Shown: piece after piece, positions 19,958 to 49,777 of the stretch
Layout of the letters: every line of letters begins with the position of its first letter
How positions within the stretch are numbered: the stretch's first letter is position 1
From: an uncultured Actinomycetota bacterium
Lineage (GTDB): Bacteria > Actinomycetota > Actinomycetes > Propionibacteriales > Nocardioidaceae
NCBI GenBank assembly: GCA_963795135.1
Contig: CAWCGS010000008.1
Location: 257,794-321,793 of the forward strand
Direction: 5' to 3'
Length of the DNA stretch: 64,000 nt
The notes under the pieces: model-generated
What the model was told of the DNA's origin: nothing
What the model saw: the letters and a program-made list of their open reading frames with translations, nothing else
Database searches by the model: none
Program-made: the position numbers and the translations under genes

Positions 19958-21260
19958 ATGACCGAAGCAGCGCCGACCACCACCGAGACCCTCCTCGGCG
20001 AGCTGCGCACGGCCAACACCGACATCGCCCAGGTGGAGATCCGCAAGCTCGAGCTGACGGTGGAGTGGGCGGTCGAGAACACCGTCGAAGCCGACGGGGA
20101 GTGGGCCGCCCACCAGGTCAGCCTCTTCGGCGACCGGGCCCTGCCGATCGCCGGGCCTGGGGCTCCGCTGGTCTCGGAGTTCGCGCTGATGGAGTACGCC
20201 GCCGCGCTGGGCCTGTCGACCGACTCCGGCAAGGCCTACGTCGGCAAGACCCTCGAGCTGCGCTACCGCCTCCCCCGGCTCTGGGAGCAGGTGATGACCG
20301 GGCGGGTGCCGGTGTGGCGGGCGATGCGGGTCGCCGAGCACACCCTCTGCCTCCCGATGGCCGCAGCCGCCGACGTCGACACCGCACTCGCTCCCGCTGC
20401 TGGGACGTGCTCGTGGGCCCAGATCGGCCGGCTCGTCGAGGAGGCCCTGGCCCGCCACGACCCCGCCGAGGCCGAGGAGCGTCGCCGGCGCGCCGCGGAC
20501 GGACGACGCTTCGACGTCGAGACCGACCTCGTCGACACCGCCGGCACCGTCCAGGTCACCGGCTGCCTCGACCTGGCCGACGCGCTGGACCTCGAGGCGG
20601 CGGTCAGCCGGTCCGCGACCCAGCTGGCCGAGCTGGGCTCCACCGAGACCCTCGACGTACGCCGCTCGATCGCCGTCGGTGAGATCGCCCGGCAGCAGCT
20701 CGCCCTCGACCTGGAGACCGGCGAGATCCAGCCCAGTCGGGGTCGGGGCGTGGTGCTCCACGTCCACCTCACCGACGCCGCCATCACCGGGGTCGGCGGC
20801 AACGTCGCCCGCTGCGGCAACACCCGCACCCCGGTCCTGCTCGACCAGGTCAAGCAGTGGTGCCAATCAGCGGGGCAGATCACCGTCGTCCCGATCAAGG
20901 ACCTCGGCGCCCACCACCACGTGGAGGCCTACGAGATCCCGGACCGGATCAAGACCCAGACCGAGCTGCTCAACCACACCTGCGTCTTCCCCCACTGCAC
21001 CCGCCGCGCCGAGAGCTGCGACCACGACCACATCGACCCCCACCACCCCGACGGCACCGGCGGCGCCACCTGCTCGCACAACATCGCGCCACTCTGCCGG
21101 ACGACACCACCGGGCGAAGACCCACGGCCGATGGCGCTACCGACGGATCCATCCCACCGGCTACGAGTGGACCACCCCGCACGGCTACCGGATCCTCCGC
21201 GACCACCACGGCACCCACCCCGCCGTTCCGCCCGACCACCCACCCGACCGCGAGCCCTGA
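19958..21260 (+). CDS. DUF222/13E12-like HNH endonuclease; +1 frameshift near 21100 (error or pseudogene)
   Basis: CVFPHC...CDHDHIDP...GGATCSHNIAPLCR continues as RHHRAKTHGRW in the next frame to the stop at 21260. Confidence 0.85.
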
Positions 21261-21360
21261 CCCAGCCCCGAGCCCCGGCGTACCCCCCACCACGCCGGGG
21301 CCACCGGCACGCCGGTCCAACGGGCCGTAGCCGGCCGCAGCGCCGGCGGGTGGCGGCGCC

Positions 21361-28518: not shown

Positions 28519-29916
28519 TCAGCGGCCCGCATCCGCGCGTGCGGCCGAGCTGCGGGCGAGGTCGGCCAGCCGGGCCAGCGCCGCCGGGAAGATCTCCGTC
28601 GGCGGGGTGACCAGCCCGGCGCCGACCTGGCCCACGCCGGCCACCTTGCCGGCCATGCCGGTGTTGATCTGGGGCAGGATCCCGGTGCGGCAGACCCGGG
28701 TGACGTCGATGCCGGTCGGGGTGCCCTGGAACTCCAGCACCGGCACCGACCAGCGGGGGTTCTCGCCGAGCGTGATCTCGTGCATGCGGCGGGTCGTGGC
28801 CAGGGCGTCGGGCACCGAGCCACCCACCAGCCGGACGATCGCCGGGGCCGTCGCCATCGCGAAGCCGCCCAGGCCCGCGGTCTCGGTGATCGCGCTGTCG
28901 CCGATGTCGGGGTTGGCGTCGTCGGGTCCGAAGTCACCGAGGTAGAGGCCGTCGGCGACCTGGGCCGGCCCCGTGAACCACTGATCGCCGGTGCCGGCGG
29001 TCTGGATGCCGAAGTCGGTGCCGTTGCGGGCCATGGCCACGACCATCGTGGACCCCTCGGTGCCCCGGGCGGCGTCGAGGGCGAGCTTGCAGGCGGGCAT
29101 GGCGAGGTTGAGGAAGAAGTGGTCGTTGCCGCCGACGAAGCGCAGCACCTCGCTCACGTCCGCCGGGTCGCCGGTGGTGACCAGGGCGGGCGCGAGGTCG
29201 CGCAGCAGCATCAGCGTGCCGGCGCGGTTGCGGTTGTGGGCCTCGTCGCCCATCTGGAGCATCTGGGTCAGGATCCCGGTGACGTCGACCGGCTCCACGG
29301 CCCGGACGGCGCCCCGCAGCAGCGGCCCGAGCACCTCACCCATCCAGCGCAGGCGGGTGAGCACGTCGGGGGAGTAGGCGCCGTAGCGCAGCACCTTGCC
29401 GAGACCCTCGTTGAGGGAGCAGTGGGTACGTCGCCCGGTGGCGCGGTCCTCCAGCACCCACATCCACATGCTGGGCGTGACCACGCCGGCCATCGGCCCG
29501 ACCGTGCGGCGGTGGTGACACGGCTGGAGGCTGACGCCCTCGCCCGACTCGAAGAGGGCGACGGCGTCCTCGGGGTCGCCGACCAGGCCCTCGAGCGCCG
29601 CGCCGGCCATCAGCGCGCCGCGCATCGGCCCCGAGGCCCGCTCCCAGCTGAGCGGGGGGCCCGCGTGGAGGAACTCGCCCTGCTGGAGGCCGAGCACCTC
29701 CGCGGCCGGCGCCACGTCGACCAGGTGGGCGGTGACACCGAGGACGGCGGCGAGCGCGGCGGCGTTCGCCTCCGCCCGGCGCGGGTCGGCCGCCACCGTC
29801 GCCAGGTCGGCCTCGGTGCCGGGCAGGGGCGGGCGCCAGTCGACGCGGGCCACGTCGACGGCCTGGGCCGCGACGGCGTCGCCGAGCAGGTCGGCGCCGG
29901 TGTTGACGATCCTCAT
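28519..29916 (-). CDS. DUF1116 (YlbE/YahG; AllG-like oxamate carbamoyltransferase subunit)
   Basis: LHAGPP, GPMAGV, MGDEAHNRN, MARNG, DIGDSAITE, INTGMA. Confidence 0.9.
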   Translation of the reverse strand: MRIVNTGADLLGDAVAAQAVDVARVDWRPPLPGTEADLATVAADPRRAEANAAALAAVLGVTAHLVDVAPAAEVLGLQQGEFLHAGPPLSWERASGPMRGALMAGAALEGLVGDPEDAVALFESGEGVSLQPCHHRRTVGPMAGVVTPSMWMWVLEDRATGRRTHCSLNEGLGKVLRYGAYSPDVLTRLRWMGEVLGPLLRGAVRAVEPVDVTGILTQMLQMGDEAHNRNRAGTLMLLRDLAPALVTTGDPADVSEVLRFVGGNDHFFLNLAMPACKLALDAARGTEGSTMVVAMARNGTDFGIQTAGTGDQWFTGPAQVADGLYLGDFGPDDANPDIGDSAITETAGLGGFAMATAPAIVRLVGGSVPDALATTRRMHEITLGENPRWSVPVLEFQGTPTGIDVTRVCRTGILPQINTGMAGKVAGVGQVGAGLVTPPTEIFPAALARLADLARSSAARADAGR

Positions 29917-31394
29917 CGCGTGCCCCCGACCCAGCGCAGGGCGTAGCGGGCGGCGGCGGCGTTGGAGAGGTGCACCTGGGCGCCGGTCTCGGCGAGCGCC
30001 TCCCGTTGACGCTGGAGGTCCTGGGGGTCCGCGCGGGTCCCGACCACGACCACCGACACGACCGGGCGCGCGCCGTCGAGCAGCGGGGCGAGCGCGGCCG
30101 CGGGGTCGGCCTCGGCGCCGTGGCCGAGGACCACGTCGAGCAGCACCGACGCCGTCGCCGGGTCGCCGAGCACCTCACCCAGGTGCTCGAGGCGGACCGT
30201 GGGGTCGATCATCGGGTGGGCCCGACCGCGGGTGAGCGTGTCGTCGCCGAAGTCGACCACCGCGTGGCCGGAGCGCAGCGCGTCGGGCGTGCTGCCCACC
30301 TCGCCGAGCTGGTCGGCAGCCAGCTGCCGGGCCTCGCCGGCCAGGGTGCCGCCGACGAAGAGCCCGCGCAGGAAGCCCGAGCGCTCGTCGGTGCGTGGTC
30401 GCCGCGTGCCCAGGAGGGGCCAGTCGGGCACGCCCCAGCCCAGCCGGCGCAGCACGGCCTCGGTGGCGGCGGTCAGGTCGGGGCGCCCGGGGCCCAGCAG
30501 CGCGAGCTCGACCGGGGTGTCCAGGGTGGCGGCGTACGCCTGGACGGCCGTGGCCACCTCGGGTGCGGGCGGCTTCGAGACCAGCACGATCAGCTCCACG
30601 GCGGGGTCGGCGTCGAGCCGACGCAGCGCCTCGCGGGTGGACAGCCCGCCGACCTCCGCCGACAGGTCGCGCCCGCCGACGCCCAGCGCGGCGCTGACGC
30701 CGACGCCCGCGTGGTCGAGGAGGGCCAGCACCTGCTGGCAGCCGGTGCCGGAGGCGGCGACGATGCCGACGGGGCCGGGGGCGACGACGTTGGCGAAGCC
30801 CAGCCCGACGCCGCCGACGATCGCAGTGCCGCAGTCGGGGCCCAGCACCAGCAGCCCGCGCGTCGGCGGCCGCCTGCTTCAGCGCGACCTCCTGGTCGAG
30901 CGGCACGTTGTCGCTGAAGACCATCACGTCGTGACCCGCCTCGACCGCGTCCACGGCCTCGACGAACGCCGAGGCGCCGGGCACGGAGACCAGGACGACG
31001 GTGTCGTCCGGCTCGCCGCGCAGGGCGGCGGCCGTCGTGCGGTGCGGCGCGACCTCGCCGGCCGCGGCCGGACGCCGGCCGGAGCCGGCCAGGGCCGCGG
31101 TGACGCCGGCGAGCGCCGCGGCGTGGTCGCCGTCGGGGCCGAGCCGCAGGGCCACCACGAGGTCGTTGACATCCGTGTCGGCCGGCACCGCGAACCCCAT
31201 GCCGGTGAGCACCTCGACGTTGAGGGCGGTGGCCATGGCCACCTGCGCGGTGACCACGCCCGGCAGCTGCTGGACGGCCCGGCTGACCTGGAGCAGGGTG
31301 ATCGAGTCGGCGTAGGCCCCGCGGCGCAGCTCCACGTGGTCGCGGGCTCCACGTGGTCGACGGTGCCGAGGGGGGCGTCGGGCTGCCCGCTCAT
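29913..31394 (-). CDS. fdrA: FdrA/YahF (AllF-like) acyl-CoA synthetase-fold protein, with frameshifts near 31344 and 30860
   Basis: GAYADSITLLQVS and VMVFSDNV in one frame; GPDCGT, AASGTG, VSKPP and GRAHPMID in another. Confidence 0.85.
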
Positions 31395-32050
31395 GCCGCG
31401 AGCGCCCATCGCGCGCCCTCGAGCAGCCCGGTGCCCGAGGAGCCACCGACCGCGACCAGCGCGTCGGTGGCCGCCGGCTCGTCGGGGGAGCCGAGCGCGG
31501 TCAGCCACGCGGCGTACTCCGGCAGGACCTCGCCGTGCAGGGCGCAGTCGAGCAGCGTGGCAGAGAGCAGCGTGGTGCGGTCGAGCAGCCGGCGCACCTC
31601 GGCGTCGACGGTGGGGGTCGCCCGGCCCGCGGCGCGGTGCGCGGCCAGCCAACCGCAGAGGACGTCGTCGCCGTAGGGCGTCAGTCCGTCGCCGGCCCCG
31701 ACCAGGTCACCCACCGGCGTGCGCAGGGCACCGGTGGCGTCGAGCCCGGCGCCGAGCCGGGGCGCGGTCACGTCGGCGAGCCGGCCCACGACGTACGTCG
31801 TGCCGTCGAGCAGCAGCCGTCCGTCGCGCACCTCCGCACCGACCGGTCGCGGGAGGCTCGGCAGCCGGGTGCGCAGGGCGCACGGCACGGCGCTGGCCCG
31901 CGCCGAGAGGACGCCGAGGCACCGACCGTCGAGGTCGACGTACACCGCGTCCGGTCCGACGTGCACGAGCGGCAGCGGTCCGTCGGGTGCGGCGCGCAGC
32001 CGCTCGGCGACGCGGGCGGGTGCGCTCACGGGGACCGGAGACGGCTGCAC
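31391..32050 (-). CDS. DUF2877 (YlbF/AllH-like) protein
   Basis: GAGDGLTPYGDDVLCG, TTLLS, VGGSSG; ATGA coupling to fdrA; start uncertain. Confidence 0.85.
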   Translation of the reverse strand: MQPSPVPVSAPARVAERLRAAPDGPLPLVHVGPDAVYVDLDGRCLGVLSARASAVPCALRTRLPSLPRPVGAEVRDGRLLLDGTTYVVGRLADVTAPRLGAGLDATGALRTPVGDLVGAGDGLTPYGDDVLCGWLAAHRAAGRATPTVDAEVRRLLDRTTLLSATLLDCALHGEVLPEYAAWLTALGSPDEPAATDALVAVGGSSGTGLLEGARWALAA

Positions 32051-32180
32051 CGGCCCGACGCTACCCCGAGTCGCGCGCCGGGGGTCGCTGCGGCGTTCCT
32101 CCGACACGCCGGGGCCGGGAGGGTGTCTCATGTCCTGCAGGGGGCGGGCTCCACCGCCCCGAGCGTCGGGAGGTTGTGCG

Positions 32181-33614
32181 ATGTCGATGTTCAGCTGGAC
32201 GGTGGTCGACCCGGGTCCGGACGAGGCGGTGGCCCCGCACGAGCGGCTGGCCTGGGGCAAGACCGTGGGGCTCGGGGCGCAGCACGTCGTGGCGATGTTC
32301 GGGGCGACGTTCGTCTTCCCGATCATCATGGGGCTCAACCCCAACCTCGCGATCATGATGAGCGGGATCGCGACCATCTGCTTCCTGCTGATCGTCAAGG
32401 GCAAGGTGCCGAGCTATCTGGGCACCTCCGCGTCCTTCGTCGGCGGCGCGACGGCGATCTACACCTACGAGGGCGCCGGCGGCCCCGGTGGTCCCGCCGA
32501 CGTGACGGGCGCGATCCTGGTCGCCGGCGTCGTGCTCGCCCTGGTGGGCGTGGTCATCCACGTGCTGGGCGCCGACGCCGTCAACGCCGTGCTGCCGCCG
32601 GTCGTGACCGGCGCGGTCGTGATGCTGATCGGCTTCAACCTCGCACCGGTCGCCACCCAGACCTACATGCCCTCCGACCCGTGGGTCGCGATCATCACGA
32701 TGACGCTGGTGATCGTGATGGCGGTCGGGCTGCGCGGGTTCTTCGGCCGGATCGCGATCTTCCTCGGGCTGATCGCCGGCTACGTCGTCTCGGCGCTGGC
32801 CGACGTGATCTTCGGCCAGACCTCGCTGCCGCTGCCCGGCAACCCCGAGCCCGGCCCGCACGACCGGGTCAACTGGGACGCCGTGAGCGGCTCCGACTGG
32901 TTCGGCTTCCCGACGCAGACCCAGGACGGCCTGGTCGGCAACCAGAACGCCAACCCCGACTTCCTGTCGGTCGTGGGCTGGCACCTGCCGTCGTTCTCGA
33001 TCGTCTTCGTGCTGCTGGTGCTGCCGGCGGTGATCGCGCTGGTCGCCGAGAACCTCGGCCACGTCAAGGCCGTCGGTGAGATGACCGGGGTCGACCTCGA
33101 CCCCGTGATGGGGCGCGCGGTCGCCGCCGACGGCGTCGGCACCGTGATCGCCACCTCGGTCGGCGGCTCGCCCACGACGACGTACGCCGAGAACATCGGC
33201 GTCATGGCGGCCACCAAGGTCTACTCGACCGCGGCCTACTACGTCGCGGCGATCGTGGCGATCCTGCTCGGGCTGGTGCCGAAGTTCGGCGCCCTGGTCA
33301 ACGCCACGCCGCCCGCCGTGCTCGGTGGCATCACCTTGGTGCTCTACGGGATGATCGGGCTCCTCGGTGCCAAGATCTGGAAGGAGAACGGGGTGGACTT
33401 CGGCCGACCGATCAACCTCGTCCCGGTCAGCGCCGGCATCATCCTCGCGATCGGCAACGCGTCGTTGGAGGTCACCGACGACTTCGTGCTCAGCGGCATC
33501 GCCCTCGGCACGCTGGTGACGGTGCTCGGCTACCACCTGGCGCGCCTGGTCAGCCGCGGCGGCGACGACGGCACGATGATCGCGGTCGGGCACGAGGGGG
33601 CCCACACCGAGTGA
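32181..33614 (+). CDS. NCS2 nucleobase permease, UraA/RutG-like
   Basis: GGAGG RBS; GAQHVVAMFG; signature TTYAENIGVMAATKVYS. Confidence 0.93.
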   Translation: MSMFSWTVVDPGPDEAVAPHERLAWGKTVGLGAQHVVAMFGATFVFPIIMGLNPNLAIMMSGIATICFLLIVKGKVPSYLGTSASFVGGATAIYTYEGAGGPGGPADVTGAILVAGVVLALVGVVIHVLGADAVNAVLPPVVTGAVVMLIGFNLAPVATQTYMPSDPWVAIITMTLVIVMAVGLRGFFGRIAIFLGLIAGYVVSALADVIFGQTSLPLPGNPEPGPHDRVNWDAVSGSDWFGFPTQTQDGLVGNQNANPDFLSVVGWHLPSFSIVFVLLVLPAVIALVAENLGHVKAVGEMTGVDLDPVMGRAVAADGVGTVIATSVGGSPTTTYAENIGVMAATKVYSTAAYYVAAIVAILLGLVPKFGALVNATPPAVLGGITLVLYGMIGLLGAKIWKENGVDFGRPINLVPVSAGIILAIGNASLEVTDDFVLSGIALGTLVTVLGYHLARLVSRGGDDGTMIAVGHEGAHTE

Positions 33615-34429
33615 AGCCCGCTCCGTTCGCCTACCTGCGGCCGTCCTCGCTCGAGGAGGCGGTCGCGGCCCTGGCCGCGGACCCCGGGGCGAAGGTGCTC
33701 GCCGGAGGGCAGTCGCTGGTGCCGCTGCTGTCGATGCGGCTGGCCGCGCCGTCGCTGCTCGTCGACCTCAACGGCCTGCCCGGGCTGGACGCCGTCTCGG
33801 TCGACGAGTCGGGGGTGCGGGTCGGCGCGCTGGCCCGCCACAGCGACGTGCTCGCGTCGCCCGACGTACGTCGGGTCCAGCCGCTGCTGAGCACGGCGCT
33901 GACCTACGTGGCCCACCCGACGATCCGCAACCGCGGCACCGCTGTCGGGTCGTTGGTGCACGCCGACGCCGCCGCGGAGCTGCCGGTGGTGCTGCGGCTG
34001 CTCGACGGCTCCCTCGACGTGGTCGGGCCCGACGGTGCGCGCACGATCGCGGCGTCCGAGCTCTTCCTCGGACCGCTGGAGACCTCGCTGCGCCACGACG
34101 AGATCGCCACGTCGGCGTGGTTCCCGGCCCTGGCGCCGGGAGCGCGGGTCGGCTTCGCGGAGATCGCGCGACGCCACGGCGACTACGCCCTGGTGGGGGT
34201 CGCGGTGGTCGCCGACGGGGCGTCGGTGCGGGCCGGCTACGTCTCGGTCAGCGACGTCCCGGTCGTCGTCGACCTCACGGGTCTCTCGCCGGAGGAGGCG
34301 GGCGACGTGGCGCTGCGCGAGCTCAGTCCCGCCGACGACGTGCACGCGACCGCCGACTACCGCGCCCACCTCGTGCGCGTGCTGACCGCGCGGGTGCTGC
34401 GCGAGGTGCAGGCGGAGGTGGCGGCATGA
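33611..34429 (+). CDS. Molybdenum hydroxylase FAD subunit (CoxM-like)
   Basis: MKPAPFAY, LAGGQSL, IRNRGT, RRHGDYA. Confidence 0.93.
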   Translation: MKPAPFAYLRPSSLEEAVAALAADPGAKVLAGGQSLVPLLSMRLAAPSLLVDLNGLPGLDAVSVDESGVRVGALARHSDVLASPDVRRVQPLLSTALTYVAHPTIRNRGTAVGSLVHADAAAELPVVLRLLDGSLDVVGPDGARTIAASELFLGPLETSLRHDEIATSAWFPALAPGARVGFAEIARRHGDYALVGVAVVADGASVRAGYVSVSDVPVVVDLTGLSPEEAGDVALRELSPADDVHATADYRAHLVRVLTARVLREVQAEVAA

Positions 34430-34950
34430 CCGAGCCCGCCGAGCAGCTCCACGACGTACGCCTCTCCGTCAACGGGGTCGCCCACGACGTGCGCGTCCCG
34501 GCCCGGCGGCTGCTGTCCGACGCGCTGCGCCACGACCTGGGCCTGACCGGCACCCACGTCGGCTGCGAGCACGGCGTGTGCGGGGCGTGCACGGTGCTGA
34601 TGGACGGCCGGCCGGTGCGGGCCTGCCTGCTGCTCGCGGTCTCGGCAGTGGACGCGGAGATCACCACCGTCGAGGGGCTCGCGCCGTCCGACGGGCCGAT
34701 GAGCCCCGTGCAGCGGGCCTTCGCCGAGTGCCACGCCCTCCAGTGCGGCTTCTGCACGCCCGGCTTCCTGACCACCGTCACCGCCGGCCTGCGCGACAAC
34801 CCCACCCCCAGCCACGACCAGGCGCGGCAGATGATCGCCGGCAACCTGTGCCGGTGCACCGGCTACCAGAACATCGTGGCCGCGGTGGAGCGGGCGGCGG
34901 AGCTCGCCGTGGTCGAGGGGCAGGCTCCGGGCCGGGAGGGGGAGCGGTGA
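34426..34950 (+). CDS. Molybdenum hydroxylase 2x[2Fe-2S] subunit (CoxS-like)
   Basis: GCEHGVCGAC, QCGFCTPG, NLCRCTGY. Confidence 0.95.
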   Translation: MTEPAEQLHDVRLSVNGVAHDVRVPARRLLSDALRHDLGLTGTHVGCEHGVCGACTVLMDGRPVRACLLLAVSAVDAEITTVEGLAPSDGPMSPVQRAFAECHALQCGFCTPGFLTTVTAGLRDNPTPSHDQARQMIAGNLCRCTGYQNIVAAVERAAELAVVEGQAPGREGER

Positions 34951-37361
34951 CCACGCGGCTGATGGGCACCGGCGTCCCGCGGGTGGAGGACGAGCGTTTC
35001 CTGCGGGGGCAGGGGCGCTTCGCCGACGACGTGGCCGTCGGGCCCGCCACGCTGCACGCGGCCGTGCTGCGCTCACCGCACGCGCACGCGCGCATCATCG
35101 ACATCGACGTCGAGGCCGTGCTCGACCTCGACGGCGTCCACCTGGTGTGGACCTACGAGGACCTCGGCGCGCTGTCGGCGCCGATGGCCGACCCGCTGCC
35201 GCTGCTGATCCCGCACCCCGACCTGACCCACGGCCGCACCCAGCACGCGCTGGCCAAGGAGCAGGTCAACCACGTGGGCGAGGCGATCGCCTTCGTCGTC
35301 GCCGACGACCGCTACGTCGCCGAGGACGCCGTCGGCCGGATCCGGGTCACCTACGAGGTGCTGCCGCCGGTGGTCGGCATCCCGGCCGCGCGGGCCGCCG
35401 AGCGGCTGGTGCACGACGACGTGCCCGGCAACGTCGGCGCCGAGATGGTGCAGAGCACCGGGGACGTCGAGGCGGCGCTGGCGGCCTCGCCGCACCGGCT
35501 GGCGCTCGACCTCACCGTGGAGCGCAGTGCGTGCACGCCGCTGGAGGGCCGCGGCACCGTCGCCCGCTGGGATCCCGACTCCGGCCGGCTCCAGGTCTGG
35601 ACGTCGACGCAGACCTCCACCGGCGTCCGCGCCGCCGTGGCCGTCAAGCTCGGCCTCGACCTCGGGCAGGTCGACGTGATCACCCCCGACGTCGGTGGCG
35701 GCTTCGGGGTCAAGATCAACCACCCGTGGCCCGAGGAGCTGCTGGTCCCGCTGGCGGCGCGCGCCCTGGGCCGCACGGTGAAGTTCACCGAGGACCGGCG
35801 CGAGCACTTCGTCTCCACCGCCCACGAGCGAGGGCAGGTGCACCACGTCGAGGTCGGCTTCGACGACGACGGGCGGCTGCTGGGGCTCGACGTGACGTTC
35901 TGGCACGACCACGGCGCCTACACGCCGTACGGCCTGATCGTCCCGATCATCACCTCCACCCAGCTGCTCGGGCCCTACAAGCCGGCCGTCTACCGGGTGC
36001 GGTTCGAGTCGCTCTACACCAACACCGTCATGGTCACGCCCTACCGCGGGGCCGGGCGGCCGCAGGGCTGCTACGTCATGGAGCGCACGATGGACGCGAT
36101 CGCCGCGGCGCTCGGGCGCGACCGCACCGAGGTGCGCGCGGCGAACTTCATCCAGCCCGACGAGTTCCCCTTCGACCAGGGGCTGATCTTCCAGGACGGG
36201 CGCGAGCTCGAGTACGACTCCGGCGACTACCCCGCGATGCTGGAGAAGATCAAGACGCTGGTGGGGTGGGACGAGTTCCCCGCCTTCCGGGCGGAGATGG
36301 CGGCCGAGGGACGCCGGGTCGGGCTCGGGCTGGCCTGCTACGTCGAGGGCACCGGCGTCGGTCCCTACGAGGGCGCCCACGTGCACGTCGAGACCACCGG
36401 CAAGGTCAAGGTCTCGACCGGCCTGACCACCCAGGGGCAGGGACACGAGACCGTCTTCGCCCAGCTGGTCGCCGACGCGCTCGGCTGCCGGTTCGAGGAC
36501 GTCGAGGTGGTCACCGGCGACACCCGCCGGATGCCCTACGCCGTCGGCACCTTCGCCTCGCGGGCGGCGGTGATGAGCGGGTCGGCCGTCCACCTCGCGG
36601 CCCGACGTACTCGCGAGAAGGTGCTGCGGATCGCCGCCGACGCCCTCGAGGCCGCCGAGGACGACCTCGAGATCGTGGACGGCACCGTGCGGGTCAAGGG
36701 CTCGCCGGGCTCGGCGATCGACCTCGGCACCGTGTCGGTGCTCTCCAACCCGCTGCGCTACGCCTTCGACGAGGCCTCCAAGGCCGCCACGCAGTTCTCG
36801 GTGGGCGACCCGGGCAAGCCACCGGTCGCCGAGGACGACGAGCCGGGGCTCGAGGGGCGCGACTTCTACTCGCCCGAGCGGGCCACGTTCGCCTCCGGCA
36901 TGCACGCGGTGATCGTCGAGACCGACCCCGAGACCGCCGAGATCACGGTGCTGAAGTACGCCGTCGTCCACGACTGCGGGCGGCTGATCAACCCGATGAT
37001 CGTGCGCGGGCAGATCCACGGCGGTGTCGCCCAGGGCGTGGCCGGCGCGCTCTACGAGCGGATGGCCTACGACGACGACGGCCAGCTGCTCAACGCCTCG
37101 TTCATGGACTTCCTGATGCCCTACGTGACCGAGGTGCCCGACGGCATCGACATCGACCACCTCGAGACGCCGTCGCCCCTCAACCCACTCGGCATCAAGG
37201 GGGCCGGTGAGGCCGGCGTGATCCCGTCGGCCGCGGTCTTCGCCGCCGCGATCGAGGACGCCGAAGGGCTCCGTCCTGGCGCCCTGGCGATCACGGCGAT
37301 GCCGATCTCGCCGTCCGACCTGTTCCACCTGCGGCTGCAGCACAGCGAGGAGCGCTCATGA
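34947..37361 (+). CDS. Molybdenum hydroxylase large subunit (xanthine oxidase family, CoxL form II-like)
   Basis: RSPHAHA, VGGGFG, PYRGAGRP, GQGHET, GQIHGG, KGAGEAG. Confidence 0.93.
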   Translation: MTTRLMGTGVPRVEDERFLRGQGRFADDVAVGPATLHAAVLRSPHAHARIIDIDVEAVLDLDGVHLVWTYEDLGALSAPMADPLPLLIPHPDLTHGRTQHALAKEQVNHVGEAIAFVVADDRYVAEDAVGRIRVTYEVLPPVVGIPAARAAERLVHDDVPGNVGAEMVQSTGDVEAALAASPHRLALDLTVERSACTPLEGRGTVARWDPDSGRLQVWTSTQTSTGVRAAVAVKLGLDLGQVDVITPDVGGGFGVKINHPWPEELLVPLAARALGRTVKFTEDRREHFVSTAHERGQVHHVEVGFDDDGRLLGLDVTFWHDHGAYTPYGLIVPIITSTQLLGPYKPAVYRVRFESLYTNTVMVTPYRGAGRPQGCYVMERTMDAIAAALGRDRTEVRAANFIQPDEFPFDQGLIFQDGRELEYDSGDYPAMLEKIKTLVGWDEFPAFRAEMAAEGRRVGLGLACYVEGTGVGPYEGAHVHVETTGKVKVSTGLTTQGQGHETVFAQLVADALGCRFEDVEVVTGDTRRMPYAVGTFASRAAVMSGSAVHLAARRTREKVLRIAADALEAAEDDLEIVDGTVRVKGSPGSAIDLGTVSVLSNPLRYAFDEASKAATQFSVGDPGKPPVAEDDEPGLEGRDFYSPERATFASGMHAVIVETDPETAEITVLKYAVVHDCGRLINPMIVRGQIHGGVAQGVAGALYERMAYDDDGQLLNASFMDFLMPYVTEVPDGIDIDHLETPSPLNPLGIKGAGEAGVIPSAAVFAAAIEDAEGLRPGALAITAMPISPSDLFHLRLQHSEERS

Positions 37362-38020
37362 AGATCGTCGACCAGGTCACCGTGCCCGCTCCCCGCGAGC
37401 GGGTGTGGGCCTCGATCCTCGACGGCGGGGTGCTGGTGCGGGCCATCCCGGGCTGCGAGCGGCTGGTCAGCACCGCCGAGCACGAGTACGACATGACCGT
37501 CACCGCCGGCGTCGCCTCGATCCGCGGGACCTACGAGGGCCACTGCCGGCTGAGCGACCTGGTCGACGGCGAGTCGCTGGTGATGTCGCTGACCGGGTCG
37601 GGCGCCCCTGGCACCGTCGACGCCACCGTGCGGGTCCGGCTCAGCGACGACGCCGGCGCGACCACCGTGGCCTACGACGCCGACGCCACCGTGGGCGGCA
37701 TGGTCGGCGGGGTCGGCCAGCGGATGCTGACCTCGGTGTCGCGGCGGATGGCGCGGGAGTTCTTCGACAACCTCGCCGGCCAGATCGCTGCGCCCGCCGC
37801 CTCCTCCGGTCGCGGGTCTGCGGACGCTCCGGTGGGTGCCTCCGCGCCGGACGCCGGGCCCGCAGTCCCCGGGACGGTCTTCGCGCCGCCGCCCGCCCGG
37901 GGCGGGGGAGCGGGGGGTGCGGGCGCGAGCGGCGACTTCGTCCGTGGCATCGCGGTCGGCGCCGGTCTGGTGCTGATCGGGGTGCTCGCCGGCTCCCGCC
38001 TCGGCCGCCGCCGCGGGTGA
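37358..38020 (+). CDS. CoxG-like SRPBCC protein with C-terminal membrane anchor
   Basis: IPGCE, VGGVGQRML, low-complexity linker and TM helix. Confidence 0.88.
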   Translation: MKIVDQVTVPAPRERVWASILDGGVLVRAIPGCERLVSTAEHEYDMTVTAGVASIRGTYEGHCRLSDLVDGESLVMSLTGSGAPGTVDATVRVRLSDDAGATTVAYDADATVGGMVGGVGQRMLTSVSRRMAREFFDNLAGQIAAPAASSGRGSADAPVGASAPDAGPAVPGTVFAPPPARGGGAGGAGASGDFVRGIAVGAGLVLIGVLAGSRLGRRRG

Positions 38021-38119
38021 CCGGTCGGCGGTGGGTGTGCCACCGGATCTGCGGCGTAGGAGGTGGTTGAGCCACCGCCGCACGGGGTCGGCTGCGGCGG
38101 GGTCGGGCATGCTGGCCCC

Positions 38120-39535
38120 ATGTCCGGGACCGAGCTGACCGCGTCGTCGACCGCCCGCGAGATGCGCGACGCCGTGCAGGCGCGGCGAATCTCCGCCCGT
38201 GAGCTGCTCGAGCTGCACCTGGAGCGGATCGCGGAGCGCAACCCCGAGCTGACCGCCGTCGTCGCCCTCGACGCCGAGCGGGCCCGGGCGGGCGCGGCAG
38301 CGGCCGACCAGCATCTCGCCTCGGGGGCGCCGACCGGGCCGCTGCACGGTCTGCCGTTCGCGGTGAAGGACACCCACAACGTCGCCGGGTGGACCACGAC
38401 GTACGGCTCCCGCCTCTTCGCCGACCACGTGCCGGACGCCGACGACCTGATCGTCGAGCGGGTACGTCGGGCCGGGGTGGTGCTGCTGGGCAAGACCAAC
38501 GTGCCGGAGTTCGCGGCCGGGTCGCACACCTTCAACCGGCTCTACGGCACCACCCGCAACCCCGCCGACCCCAGCCGCTCCGCGGGCGGCTCGAGCGGCG
38601 GCGCGGCGGCGGCGCTGGCCTCGGGGATGGTCCCGCTGGCCGACGGGTCCGACATGGGCGGCTCGCTGCGCAACCCCGCGTCGTTCTGCGGCGTCGTCGG
38701 GCTGCGGCCCTCGCTGGGCCGGGTGCCGACCTGGCCCGCGAGCAACCAGTGGGAGACCACCTCGGTCAGCGGCCCCCTCGCCCGCACCGTCGGCGACGTG
38801 GCGCTGCTGCTGTCGGTGGTCGCCGGCCCCGACCCCCGGGTGCCGCTGGCGCTCGGCGACCCGGGCGCGGTCTTCGCGCCCCCCGTCACCGGATCGCTCG
38901 ACGGGCTGCGGGTGGCCTGGTCGCTCGACCTCGGCGGCGCCTTCGAGGTCGACACCGAGGTGGCGCGGGTGACCGAGGAGGCGGGGCGGCTGATGGCGCG
39001 CCACGGGGCCCGGGTCTTCGGCGCCCACCCCGACCTGACCGGGGCCGACGACACCTTCCGCACCCTGCGCGCCTGGCACCTCCACGCGTCGTACGCCGAC
39101 CTGCTGGCCCGGCACCCGCACGAGCTCAAGCAGTCGCTGGCCGACAACATCCGGGCCGGCGAGCCGCTGACGGGTCCCGACGTCGCCGCGGCCTACCGGA
39201 CCCGCACCGAGATCACCGAGCGGATGCGCCGCTTCTTCCTCGACTACGACGTGCTGGTGCTGCCGGTCTCGCAGGTGCCGCCGTTCCCGGTCGACCAGGA
39301 GTACCCGACGTCGATCAACGGCCGTCCGATGACGTCCTACCTCGACTGGATGCGCTCGGCCTACCTGATCTCGGTGACCGGCTGCCCGGCCATCTCGGTG
39401 CCGGCCGGCCGCACCGCCGACGGGCTACCGGTCGGCGTGCAGATCGTCGCCCCGCACGGCGCCGACCGCCGGCTGCTCGAGGTCGCCGCCGCGTTCGAGG
39501 CGGTCTCGGGAGCCGGCACCGGTCACGACTCGTAG
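38120..39535 (+). CDS. Amidase-signature family amidase
   Basis: AVKD, GKTNVPEF, GGSSGG, GSDMGGSLRNPA. Confidence 0.93.
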   Translation: MSGTELTASSTAREMRDAVQARRISARELLELHLERIAERNPELTAVVALDAERARAGAAAADQHLASGAPTGPLHGLPFAVKDTHNVAGWTTTYGSRLFADHVPDADDLIVERVRRAGVVLLGKTNVPEFAAGSHTFNRLYGTTRNPADPSRSAGGSSGGAAAALASGMVPLADGSDMGGSLRNPASFCGVVGLRPSLGRVPTWPASNQWETTSVSGPLARTVGDVALLLSVVAGPDPRVPLALGDPGAVFAPPVTGSLDGLRVAWSLDLGGAFEVDTEVARVTEEAGRLMARHGARVFGAHPDLTGADDTFRTLRAWHLHASYADLLARHPHELKQSLADNIRAGEPLTGPDVAAAYRTRTEITERMRRFFLDYDVLVLPVSQVPPFPVDQEYPTSINGRPMTSYLDWMRSAYLISVTGCPAISVPAGRTADGLPVGVQIVAPHGADRRLLEVAAAFEAVSGAGTGHDS

Positions 39536-47078: not shown

Positions 47079-48717
47079 ATGTCTCCCCTCGTGGCGCGCC
47101 GTGCCGGCGCCCTCGTCCTGGCCGGAGCCCTCACCGGCGCCGTGCTCAGCCCCACCGCGGCCTCGGCCGCCGCGCCCGGCGGTCCGCCCACCGGCCCCTC
47201 GGCCGCCGCCGGCGCCTGGATCGCCGGCCAGCTCGGCGCCAACGGACTGCTGCCGGGCCAGTTCGGCCCCGACTTCCCCGACTACGGGCTGACCATCGAC
47301 GCCGCCCTCGCCATCGACGCCGTCGGCGGGCCGCAGGCCGCGGTGCAGCAGATCGCCGGCGCGATCGAGGAGAACGTCGACAGCTACATCGGCTACGACT
47401 ACACCTTCGAAGGCGTGCGCTACTACGGCGACGTCGCCGGCGCGACGGCCAAGGCGGCGGTGCTGGCCCGGACGGCGGGCGCCGACGAGACGGACTTCGG
47501 CGGCACCGACCTCGTGGAGCGGCTGGAGTCGCTGACGATCGACGACGGCGCCACCGCGGGTCGGATCTTCGACACCGCTCAGGGCGAGCCCGACTACGCG
47601 TACGCCAACACCATCAGCCAGTCCTTCGCCGCCCGCGCGCTCACCGACGCCGCCAGCCCCGAGGCCGCGGCCGCGACCGACTTCCTGCTCGCCCAGCAGT
47701 GCAGCGAGGGCTTCTTCCGGCTGAGCTTCTCCGACATCGACGCGGCCGACCAGACCTGCGACTCCGACCCCGACGCCGCCGGCGACACCGACGTGACGGC
47801 GTTCGCGCTGCTGGCGCTGGTCGAGCAGGCCGGTGACCCGGACGTCGACACGGCGATCGCGGCCACCGTCGGCTGGCTCGAGGGCACGCAGGCCGCTGAC
47901 GGCTCCTTCGGCGGCGGCGTCGCCACCGAGAGCGCCAACGCCAACAGCACCGGCCTGGCCGGGTGGGCGCTCGGCGAGGCCGGCGCGGACGCCGCCGCCG
48001 CGGACGCCGCGGCGTGGGTGGCTGCGCTCCAGGCCCCCGCCGACACCGCCTGCCTCACCGGCCCGCTCGCGGCGGAAGCCGGGGCCATCGCCTACGACCA
48101 GGCCGCTCTCACTGCTGGCGAGGCCGACGGCATCTCCGCAGAGCTGGGCGACCAGTGGCGGCGTACGACGGCCCAGGCCCTGCCCGTCCTGCAGCACCTG
48201 GAGGGAGTGGCAGCCGTCAACGCGCTGCGGCTCGTCGGTCCCCGCGGCTTCCAGCGCGCCCGGTCCAGCGTGGACCTGACCGTCCGTGGTCTCGGTGCCG
48301 TGGGCGACGGCTGCGTCACGGGCCCCGGCGCCAAGGCGGCCGTGACCGGCGCTGCCCCGTCCGCCTCGATCAAGCTGCCGGGCGGCACCGGTGAGCGCAC
48401 CTACACCGCCTCCTGGCTCGGCGACCCCGCCACGACCACCGTCAAGGTCCTCGGCGCCACCAAGCTCGCCGTCGACGCGAAGCGCGGCAGCGGTCAAGGC
48501 CGGTCGCAAGCAGGTCGTCAAGGTCACGGGCCTGGTCCAGGGCGAGAAGGTCACGGTCTTCCTGCGCGGCCGCAAGGTCGACACCGGGCGCGCGTCGCGC
48601 TCGGGTCGCTTCACGGCCCGCTTCGTGGTGCGCGGCAAGCCGGGCCGGGCGAAGGTCAAGGCCGTCGGTCACTTCGGCAACCGCCGGGGCACCGACGCCT
48701 TCCGCGTGGTGCGGTGA
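47079..48717 (+). CDS. Secreted prenyltransferase/squalene-cyclase-repeat (alpha/alpha toroid) protein, frameshift near 48486
   Basis: Signal peptide; FLLAQQCSEGFF and WLEGTQAADGSFG QW-like repeats; NANSTGLA; basic C-terminal beta domain in the next frame. Confidence 0.78.
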
Positions 48718-48718
48718 C

Positions 48719-49777
48719 GTGCGGGTCGCCTCGACCCACGTCGCGCGGCTGACGGCCGCGGTCGGACTGACCGCGGCCGCCGGGCTCACCGTCCTCGGTG
48801 GGGCCGCCGCCCCGGCGCAGGCAGCCGGGTGCACGACGTCCACCGGCGTCACCCTCGTCGTCGACCGCAACGGTCTCGGCGGTGGCGTGCAGGAGACCTG
48901 CGACGCCAGTGGTGGCGGTCGGACGGCGGCTGACCTCTTCGGCACCCGACTCACCTATGCCCAGCGCGAGCCGGGATTCGTGTGCCGGGTCGACAATGCT
49001 CCGTCGAGCGACCCGTGCGTCAACACCTCGCCGTCCGACGCCTACTGGAGCCTGTGGTGGTCCGACGGCACCTCGGGGTCGTGGACCTACTCGAGCGTCG
49101 GGGCGCGGTCGCTGCGGATCCCCGACGGCGGCTACGTGGGCTTCTCCTGGAACACCGGCGGGGACCGCGACGCCCCGTCGTCCAGCACCCCGGCCCGCCA
49201 GGCCGAGCCCACTCCGGCTCCGCAGCCCTCCGGTGGCGGCTCGTCCGGCTCCGGCGGCTCCGGCGGCTCGGGCGGCTCGGGTGGCTCGGGTGGCGCGTCG
49301 GGATCGGGGGGGTCGAGCAGTGGCTCGGGAGGCTCCTCGACCGGCGGGTCCGGGGGGACCGCGGGCACGGGGGGCGGCAACGGCTCCGGCACCACCGGTG
49401 GCGCCACCGGCTCGACGTCGAGCCCGGGCGACCCGGCCGACCCGTCGGCCGAGGCCGGCGACGGCGCGACCACAGGAGCCGGTGCCTCGGCCTCCGCCTC
49501 GGCGAAGCCGGGCCGCACGAAGCGTGACCGCGCCACCAGCCGCGTACGTCGGGCCGGGGCCGGGGCCGCGCGGAGCGCCTCCGCCGAGCCCTCGTCCACC
49601 GACAGCCCGACGACCGCAGCCGAGGCCGAGTCCTCGGAGCAGGTGACCCCGACGGCCTCGCCGCCGGACGCCGACGGTGGGCTGCCCGGCTGGGTCGCTC
49701 CCGGCGTGCTCGTGCTGCTCTTCGGAGCCGTCGGCGCGACCGTGCTCGTGCGACGGCGGGGCTCGGCCGGCTCGTGA
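48719..49777 (+). CDS. Exported DUF4430/SCO2322-like protein with Gly/Ser linker and C-terminal TM anchor
   Basis: Signal peptide AQA; GVTLVVD, FVCRVD, AYWSLW, WTYSSVGA; GGS-rich tract; TM helix followed by RRR. Confidence 0.78.
   Translation: MRVASTHVARLTAAVGLTAAAGLTVLGGAAAPAQAAGCTTSTGVTLVVDRNGLGGGVQETCDASGGGRTAADLFGTRLTYAQREPGFVCRVDNAPSSDPCVNTSPSDAYWSLWWSDGTSGSWTYSSVGARSLRIPDGGYVGFSWNTGGDRDAPSSSTPARQAEPTPAPQPSGGGSSGSGGSGGSGGSGGSGGASGSGGSSSGSGGSSTGGSGGTAGTGGGNGSGTTGGATGSTSSPGDPADPSAEAGDGATTGAGASASASAKPGRTKRDRATSRVRRAGAGAARSASAEPSSTDSPTTAAEAESSEQVTPTASPPDADGGLPGWVAPGVLVLLFGAVGATVLVRRRGSAGS

Follow-up and report, generated by a model that had tools for sequence, protein, structure and literature searches.

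The stretch analysed here, called the window throughout, comprises 64,000 nucleotides from an uncultured Actinomycetota bacterium of the Nocardioidaceae (assembly GCA_963795135.1, contig CAWCGS010000008.1) and carries two divergent operons at positions 28519–39535. One codes for a trio of proteins of the family of the Escherichia coli carbamoyltransferase AllFGH, the other for a nucleobase permease, a molybdenum hydroxylase (Mo-hydroxylase, CoxMSL) with its accessory protein CoxG, and an amidase. We suggest that both operons form the first portion of a larger gene set, which also includes barbiturase, carbamate kinase and HyuAB, an ATP-type hydantoinase/oxoprolinase A/B pair, and would serve the oxidative breakdown of uracil and thymine with recovery of ATP, a reading to which we give a probability of about 0.65. 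The assignment to a pyrimidine pathway as such is highly probable. The cluster is real and conserved; the front half of its route is known and the back half appears to be a well-supported variant predicted from the gene content.

In the proposed route the permease would import uracil and thymine, judging from its motif and its nearest relatives, and the Mo-hydroxylase would oxidize them to barbiturate and 5-methylbarbiturate, a step that is very likely given the orthology to an enzyme encoded in a Rhodococcus barbiturase cluster. Barbiturase would open barbiturate to ureidomalonate; it clearly belongs to its family, of which the R. erythropolis member is known to catalyse this step. AllF-AllG-AllH would probably split ureidomalonate with inorganic phosphate to malonamate and carbamoyl phosphate; these products are expected by analogy, since ureidomalonate is oxalurate plus one CH2 group. 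Carbamate kinase could then convert carbamoyl phosphate to ATP, NH3 and CO2, and from its context we slightly favour the amidase for the hydrolysis of malonamate to malonate and NH3. A class III CoA-transferase and a fused carboxyltransferase, whose genes are often linked to barbiturase, may convert malonate via malonyl-CoA to acetyl-CoA. HyuAB might open 5-methylbarbiturate in an ATP-dependent manner in the thymine branch, which is a tentative guess.

Distribution of the gene set

Barbiturase and carbamate kinase are absent from 28519–39535. Both are found on another contig (C9) of the same genome (G000), adjacent to each other and just behind hyuAB (G000:C9:115980-119962, L022:3981-7966), with barbiturase at G000:C9:121840-122940 and the kinase directly upstream. 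This barbiturase is 83% identical (305/368) to a protein from genome G154 that agrees with PDB 5HWE at 368/369 residues. It matches 5HWE with an E-value of 4e-201 as against 3e-95 or weaker for cyanuric acid hydrolases, and it has all five residues of the Bar signature (Asn194, His324, Lys328, Val348, Ser349; group VI) as defined in PMC3758960. In the complete genome G361 the whole set fits inside 31 kb, and the genes that follow beyond allG are those of the window; G000 thus has a single cluster in split form. Among the best 80 of 571 confirmed GTDB barbiturase loci, taken with 10-kb flanks, 72 have a kinase match, 52 have hyuB and nine have window-type coxL, in the contiguous order coxL...coxG-amidase-hyuAB-kinase-barbiturase. 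The same core occurs in Pedococcus cremeus, Cryptosporangium japonicum, Nakamurella silvestris and genomes G077 and G466. Cultured strains that carry the complete cluster include Nocardioides psychrotolerans, N. nematodiphilus and N. donggukensis (loci L050, L084 and L085).

The distribution of these genes was surveyed in 261 genomes of Actinomycetes, namely 260 of at least 90% completeness and G000. The clades were delimited at visible gaps in the identity lists (at least 70% identity for barbiturase, at least 57% for AllG). This left out PF09663-type matches of 37–44% in five genomes (G287, G308, G354, G440, G464) from the barbiturase count and seven genomes with a best match of at most 52% (G282, G295, G297, G345, G428, G453, G495) from the AllG count, and it included partial matches for barbiturase in G279 and G319 and for AllG in G338 and G501. 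Barbiturase is present in 62 genomes and AllG in the identical 62. Of these, 59 also have the CoxL clade and 60 have the HyuB clade, whereas all four clades are missing from the remaining 199. Carbamate kinase, which was searched for in the 62 and seven other genomes, is present in 62/62 and lies within 1.5 kb of barbiturase in 56/62. AllG and barbiturase share one contig in 32/62 and are at most 100 kb apart in 30/62. The co-occurrence does not reflect deep kinship only, because the genes vary together inside six families (joint presence/absence 7/14, 9/16, 12/16, 14/16, 3/8 and 1/4). Across soil actinobacteria the members of the gene set come and go together.

A pyrimidine route had already been proposed for the two operons in a preliminary description made from the letters of the window. 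It is strongly supported by barbiturase and the kinase in the same genome, the contiguity of both halves in relatives, the co-occurrence and the Rhodococcus orthologue of the Mo-enzyme (see below), but its scheme leaves a core component, HyuAB, without a role. HyuAB is as constant as barbiturase (60/62 genomes, and Rhodococcus too), is 77–91% conserved and usually has an NmrA-like gene next to it; its best NCBIfam match, caprolactamase alpha, stays under the cut-off. To our knowledge barbiturase is inactive on 5-methylbarbiturate, and our literature search turned up no paper on an enzyme acting on this compound.

In two genomes, G022 and G365, barbiturase and allF-allG stand beside a Mo-enzyme of another clade (about 30% identity to that of the window), which suggests a second, unrelated uracil dehydrogenase. 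Since barbiturase and AllFG are paired here with a different Mo-enzyme clade, their link is independent of the window-type Mo-enzyme. The clusters of this second type (L037:2479-13186 in G022, L155:5242-17963 in G365) consist of a permease, a small unknown gene, barbiturase, allF-allG and the other-clade Mo-hydroxylase.

Rhodococcus and the alternative readings

A ureidomalonase of Rhodococcus erythropolis JCM 3132 was reportedly the subject of work by Soong and co-workers in 2001. According to PMC3758960, the route of uracil-thymine dehydrogenase, barbiturase and ureidomalonase in Rhodococcus ends in urea and malonate. A barbiturase-clade gene is found in 7/201 genomes of Mycobacteriaceae. 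G154, whose proteins are labelled R. erythropolis by NCBI, has the order UPRTase, barbiturase, amidase, aminotransferase, permease, coxM, coxS, coxL, coxG, hyuA, hyuB and NmrA-like gene; genes for a CoA-transferase and a carboxyltransferase precede the cluster. AllG and carbamate kinase are each present in 0/5 of the genomes G154, G180, G228, G188 and G041, and in all five an amidase of one clade (at least 80% mutual identity), such as that at L141:2041-3519, lies directly behind barbiturase. From this position the Rhodococcus amidase is presumably the ureidomalonase. The reverse combination does not occur, as the Rhodococcus amidase clade is found in 0/63 genomes with AllG and kinase (best match 49%), among them G077 of the Mycobacteriaceae, where a window-type amidase lies directly behind allG. 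It is precisely the Rhodococcus-type genomes, the group from which the ureidomalonase route is known, that lack AllG and the kinase. The simplest reading of these sequences is that one pathway has two alternative ends, and AllFGH with carbamate kinase likely replaces ureidomalonase. In a search of the genus around R. daqingensis barbiturase was present in 1/15 genomes.

Window CoxM, CoxS and CoxL are 47, 64 and 61% identical to the proteins of the G154 cluster (CoxL over 808 columns), the PYRGAGR motif occurs in both CoxL proteins (residues 365–371 in the window), and the window genes code for the three-subunit composition (FAD, 2Fe-2S, molybdenum cofactor) of EC 1.17.99.4. Because its orthologue sits in the barbiturase cluster of Rhodococcus, the group in which the pathway was described, the so-called CO dehydrogenase of the window is very likely a uracil/thymine dehydrogenase. 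The genes of uracil-thymine dehydrogenase (EC 1.17.99.4) were reportedly identified by Soong and co-workers in 2024, and we infer that they belong to the G154-type CoxMSL clade. The route had been called undescribed in the preliminary description; its front half was thus already known, and its back half appears in no paper that we found. Our search, which left most subscription journals outside, gave no paper in which barbiturase is connected to FdrA/AllFGH, to carbamate kinase, to malonamate or to the phosphorolysis of ureidomalonate.

The window amidase has the motifs of the Lys-Ser-Ser triad and the amidase-signature fold. Its clade is found in 21/62 barbiturase genomes, a nitrilase-family enzyme, one of which lies at L138:17040-17936, in 38/62 and both in 2/62; the split mostly tracks families, and the alternation is a hint of two unrelated enzymes carrying out one simple amide step. 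Malonate as the end product is suggested by mdcA, mdcD and mdcE (malonate decarboxylase) inside the R. daqingensis cluster, which also has a cytosine permease and deaminase, and by the linkage of the CoA-transferase and carboxyltransferase pair, which lies within 15 kb of barbiturase in 27/62 genomes; the pair of G000 is on contig C14. Cytosine deaminase-like genes join several clusters, and in Rhodococcus-type genomes the cluster is accompanied by UPRTase, CoA-transferase and carboxyltransferase.

Several observations weigh against the proposed route. The allF gene is frame-broken in this assembly. The trio is no closer to the characterised AllFGH than to YahFGE of E. coli, and the substrate would be transferred by context: AllG, AllF and AllH are 46, 40 and 29% identical to their E. 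coli namesakes, and 44% (full length), 37 and 27% identical to YahG, YahF and YahE, with BLAST scores of 379 bits (Yah) vs 357 bits (All) for the AllG-like protein and 195 vs 160 for carbamate kinase. The window proteins are thus members of the family and not orthologues of the oxalurate enzyme. Other AllFG clades accompany a cysteine hydrolase (G282) or biuret genes (PMC12625717), so the family seems to take several ureides. The counts given above take related genomes as separate and overstate the number of events. Neither the amidase clade nor a nitrilase-family enzyme is present in 5/62 genomes, and outside Nocardioides and G077 the relatives of the window amidase sit apart from the cluster. 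A structure of malonamidase E2 exists, and there is no malonamidase among the 31 PDB matches of the window amidase at E 1e-30 or better; the malonamidase of the preliminary description is a candidate by context. The Rhodococcus amidase joins the window amidase family on a long branch in a small tree of 11 sequences (40% identity), and the window amidase could itself hydrolyse ureidomalonate. The permease stays under the cut-offs of RutG and UraA (348 of 759 bits for TIGR03616 and 250 of 477 bits for NF007995, with a query reading frame that has extra upstream residues), and pucR was not found in the 72% complete assembly of G000. The carboxyltransferase had to be rejected as a pathway marker, being present in 80/261 genomes, of which 44 belong to the 62 and 36 lack barbiturase. 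Finally, G121 of the Mycobacteriaceae has barbiturase, yet AllG, the kinase and the Rhodococcus amidase were not found in it; its locus may represent a third pathway ending or a decaying cluster. This locus (L149, G121:C31:1-20000) contains barbiturase, CoA-transferase, carboxyltransferase and hyuAB.

The strongest competing explanation, although unlikely, is that the window amidase is the ureidomalonase, releasing urea and malonate, and that AllFGH and the kinase act on a side stream, for example a methylated ureide of the thymine/HyuAB branch. The barbiturase-adjacent amidase of Rhodococcus belongs to the same NCBIfam subfamily (PRK07486) besides its place in the tree, and at one locus (L073) a window-type amidase lies directly behind barbiturase. 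However, the identity between both amidases equals that to two other amidases of G154, and the window clade is missing in 41/62 genomes, mostly with a nitrilase-family enzyme instead, whereas AllG and the kinase are in 62/62. Moreover, the kinase is fixed beside barbiturase and not beside hyuAB, and HyuAB is kept without AllFGH in Rhodococcus-type genomes.

Less probable still is a variant in which AllFGH acts on ureidomalonate by CoA chemistry, giving malonamoyl- or malonyl-CoA, while carbamoyl phosphate would go to the kinase as before. AllF has a PF00549 CoA-ligase domain, a CoA-binding fold and weak matches to the alpha subunit of succinyl-CoA synthetase, and the CoA-transferase and carboxyltransferase linkage mentioned above would also fit. 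Against it, PMC11326118 lists oxamate, carbamoyl phosphate and Mg2+ in the assay of the E. coli enzyme but no added CoA, and a separate amidase or nitrilase is retained in 57/62 genomes.

Purine operons often contain regulators of the PucR family and NCS2 permeases, and the cluster might be one for purines or oxalurate, with a Mo-enzyme of the xanthine type and AllFGH splitting oxalurate as in E. coli. The sole AllFGH characterised so far has oxalurate as its substrate (PMC11326118). Nevertheless, we regard this as very improbable. G000 has separate loci for xanthine dehydrogenase (C14:1135871-1140606) and uricase-allantoinase (C8:63743-67660), named by similarity and motifs, and the annotated clusters contain no purine gene. 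AllD, a source of oxalurate, was not found in the 72% complete G000 nor in any of five complete cluster-bearing relatives (5/5), the E. coli control being positive and other sources such as the aminotransferase HpxJ/PucG not having been searched for.

That CoxMSL-G is an aerobic CO dehydrogenase with incidental neighbours is hardly credible: although the large subunit is far over the cut-off of NF040766 ('aerobic carbon-monoxide dehydrogenase large subunit', CODH_aero_grp5), most named homologues bear this label and the M-S-L order with coxG agrees with it, NF040766 is a naming rule that implies no function, PYRGAGR stands where form I enzymes have AYXCSFR with its Cu-binding Cys (defined in PMC4053681), the CoxL clade is confined to barbiturase genomes (59/62 vs 0/199), and both PYRGAGR species named in that paper, Saccharomonospora viridis and Streptosporangium roseum, fall in the barbiturase group of PMC3758960. 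A search for CoxL homologues returned only CO-dehydrogenase or xanthine-dehydrogenase names, and neither 'ureidomalonase' nor 'uracil dehydrogenase' was found among the NCBI protein-cluster names for the R. erythropolis-type locus. PMC4053681 describes the function of form II coxL as undemonstrated.

Taken genome-wide, the data permit a broader reading that we hold only loosely and consider rather doubtful as a whole. AllFGH and the kinase would split ureidomalonate to ATP and ammonia in 63/69 barbiturase genomes, and this, not the urea release of the textbooks, would be the usual bacterial form. HyuAB would open 5-methylbarbiturate, and the Rhodococcus ureidomalonase would have been recruited late, out of the family of the downstream amidase, once AllFGH and the kinase had been lost. 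If the route with AllFGH and carbamate kinase is true, the last part of a pathway on record since the 1950s would be corrected for most of its carriers (62/261 Actinomycetes sampled), and AllFGH would gain a second substrate and become a general acyl-urea carbamoyltransferase. In addition, the NF040766 or PYRGAGR 'form II coxL' family would be assigned to the oxidation of pyrimidines instead of CO, with consequences for metagenome surveys that count PYRGAGR genes as CO oxidisers. Archaeal PYRGAGR genes are read as CO oxidation in PMC6053391 and PMC10773090; the archaeal clade lies outside the present comparison.

The divergent locus

The window belongs to contig C8 of G000, which is 72% complete and has Nocardioides as nearest named relatives. 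Every gene named in the preliminary description was recovered in place with Pfam and NCBIfam profiles, including the two divergent arms (Table 1). Within each arm adjacent stop and start codons share 4 nucleotides, and the gap between the arms is about 130 nucleotides (32050–32181). The GC content at 28519–39535 is 72–78%, and the flanks are alike. An AllG match is present in 16/24 genomes of the same genus vs 0/16 from other families of the order. The survey of synteny that the preliminary description had proposed found the same divergent layout, at least to coxM, in 14/16 of the same-genus genomes with an AllG match; because it is kept to this extent, the layout is not due to chance.

Table 1. 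Genes and intergenic region of the divergent locus (window coordinates)
Feature	Position	Strand	Matches and remarks
allG-like (DUF1116), 465 aa; predicted acyl-ureide carbamoyltransferase subunit	28519..29916	-	PF06545 E 3.5e-94, 315 bits; PDB 3CLQ E 1.7e-105
allF-like (fdrA), 3' part	29913..30860	-	PF00549 E 1.7e-26; NF004760 profile positions 170-491
allF-like, 5' part, other frame	30861..31394	-	NF004760 positions 6-167; ATG at 31394 overlaps allH stop
allH-like (DUF2877), start codon approximate	31391..32050	-	PF11392 E 9.2e-21, 75 bits (cut-off 25)
divergent intergenic region	32051..32180	.	conserved blocks CGGCGTTCCT and GGGTGT-T-ATG
NCS2 nucleobase permease, UraA/RutG (E-N motif) type, 477 aa	32181..33614	+	PF00860
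Mo-hydroxylase FAD subunit (CoxM-like)	33611..34429	+	PF00941, PF03450
Mo-hydroxylase 2Fe-2S subunit (CoxS-like)	34426..34950	+	PF01799, PF00111
Mo-hydroxylase large subunit (CoxL-like), motif PYRGAGR	34947..37361	+	NF040766 1476.5 bits (cut-off 950)
CoxG-like accessory protein	37358..38020	+	PF06240
amidase-signature amidase, PRK07486 subfamily	38063..39535; start maybe 38120	+	PF01425; NF005686 465.1 bits (cut-off 465)

The reading frame of allF is interrupted by a 1-nucleotide insertion at about 30862 and by a 17-nucleotide duplication at about 31329–31359, just after the start, and both pieces miss the NF004760 cut-off of 433 (249 and 75 bits). The extra base near 30862 is missing from the relatives G020 and G017. 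Among the matches listed from soil metagenomes, which come from runs other than the window's own sample, 4/4 contig pieces bridging 30862 lack one base (one of them with 1 mismatch in 137 nucleotides), and one piece of 155 nucleotides without mismatches lacks the 17-nucleotide duplication. At the 96% setting two soil pieces lack the extra base, and the piece without the duplication is not among the matches listed. None of the listed runs with matches to the window is an RNA sample. As near-identical soil contigs are free of both lesions and cluster genes of several relatives have scattered frame breaks as well, the breaks in allF are probably assembly errors. We do not favour a real pseudogene for the same reason; a strain-specific lesion is possible. 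In G020, the closest relative, it is allH and not allF whose frame is interrupted (L023:11413-12070). Elsewhere in the window two genes seem to shift frame near their ends, which fits indel errors of the assembly: 19958–21330, which we take to be HNH/DUF222-like, and 47079–48752, presumably a secreted protein with a prenyltransferase-like fold.

The UraA-type permease of the preliminary description was confirmed. The E-N motif is present, with the signature TTYAENIGVMAATKV where E. coli UraA has TTYGENIGVMAITRV, and UraA is the nearest structure (E 1e-51, vs E 4e-13 for the uric acid-xanthine permease UapA); the best NCBIfam match is RutG, followed by UraA. In most relatives a PucR-family gene, confirmed by Pfam in three, lies between the arms; it is missing there in the window, G020, G012 and G010. 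Both conserved blocks of Table 1 are kept in 4/4 aligned genomes without pucR at the locus and are a possible promoter or operator. A scan of the intergenic region for sigma-70 promoters and terminators gave no site, and a GGCA-N5-TGCC box was found neither between allH and the permease of the window nor in the 14 corresponding intervals of relatives, whether these contain pucR or not.

Comparison with known systems

A close biochemical model is AllFGH of E. coli together with AllK. According to PMC11326118, the purified enzyme interconverts oxamate plus carbamoyl phosphate and oxalurate. The window set consists of three linked genes of the same families, FdrA, AllG and AllH (PF00549, PF06545 and PF11392), with a carbamate kinase as partner. 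It differs in the order allH-allF-allG and in the place of a segment of about 47 residues, which is C-terminal in E. coli AllF but N-terminal in the window AllG, like that of YahG. Furthermore, no allantoin genes or AllD are nearby, the set is linked to barbiturase and the host is aerobic. Gene order and domain split of the E. coli genes YahE-YahF-YahG-YahI are as in the window, and the BLAST scores are equal or higher. However, this uncharacterised trio with the kinase-like YahI has an ankyrin protein and an amidohydrolase as neighbours, in contrast to the barbiturase and Mo-enzyme link of the window set.

The family is also found in other surroundings. The nitrifier biuH-allFGHK genes combine a ureide transferase with carbamate kinase too; this is a genomic prediction, read as use of oxalurate in PMC12625717. 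An operon of an isochorismatase-family cysteine hydrolase, allF, allG and carbamate kinase without barbiturase in G282 (L161:9023-13595) resembles it. In G004 (L038:1-16806) a distant AllF, AllG (37%) and carbamate kinase occur with radical SAM, AIR-synthase-like and ComA proteins, lyases and a glycosyltransferase, which is a quite different use of the AllFG family.

The ureidoglycine carbamoyltransferase of Rubrobacter xylanophilus (PMC4016543) is likewise a kinase-coupled transferase that replaces a hydrolase, but it has the ATCase fold and another substrate. With the pathway of R. erythropolis JCM 3132 the gene set shares barbiturase (83%) with the five signature residues, and in an R. erythropolis-type genome the block permease-coxM-coxS-coxL-coxG-hyuA-hyuB lies behind barbiturase; AllG and the kinase are lacking in genomes of this type, whereas the genome of the window has both and is without the Rhodococcus amidase clade.

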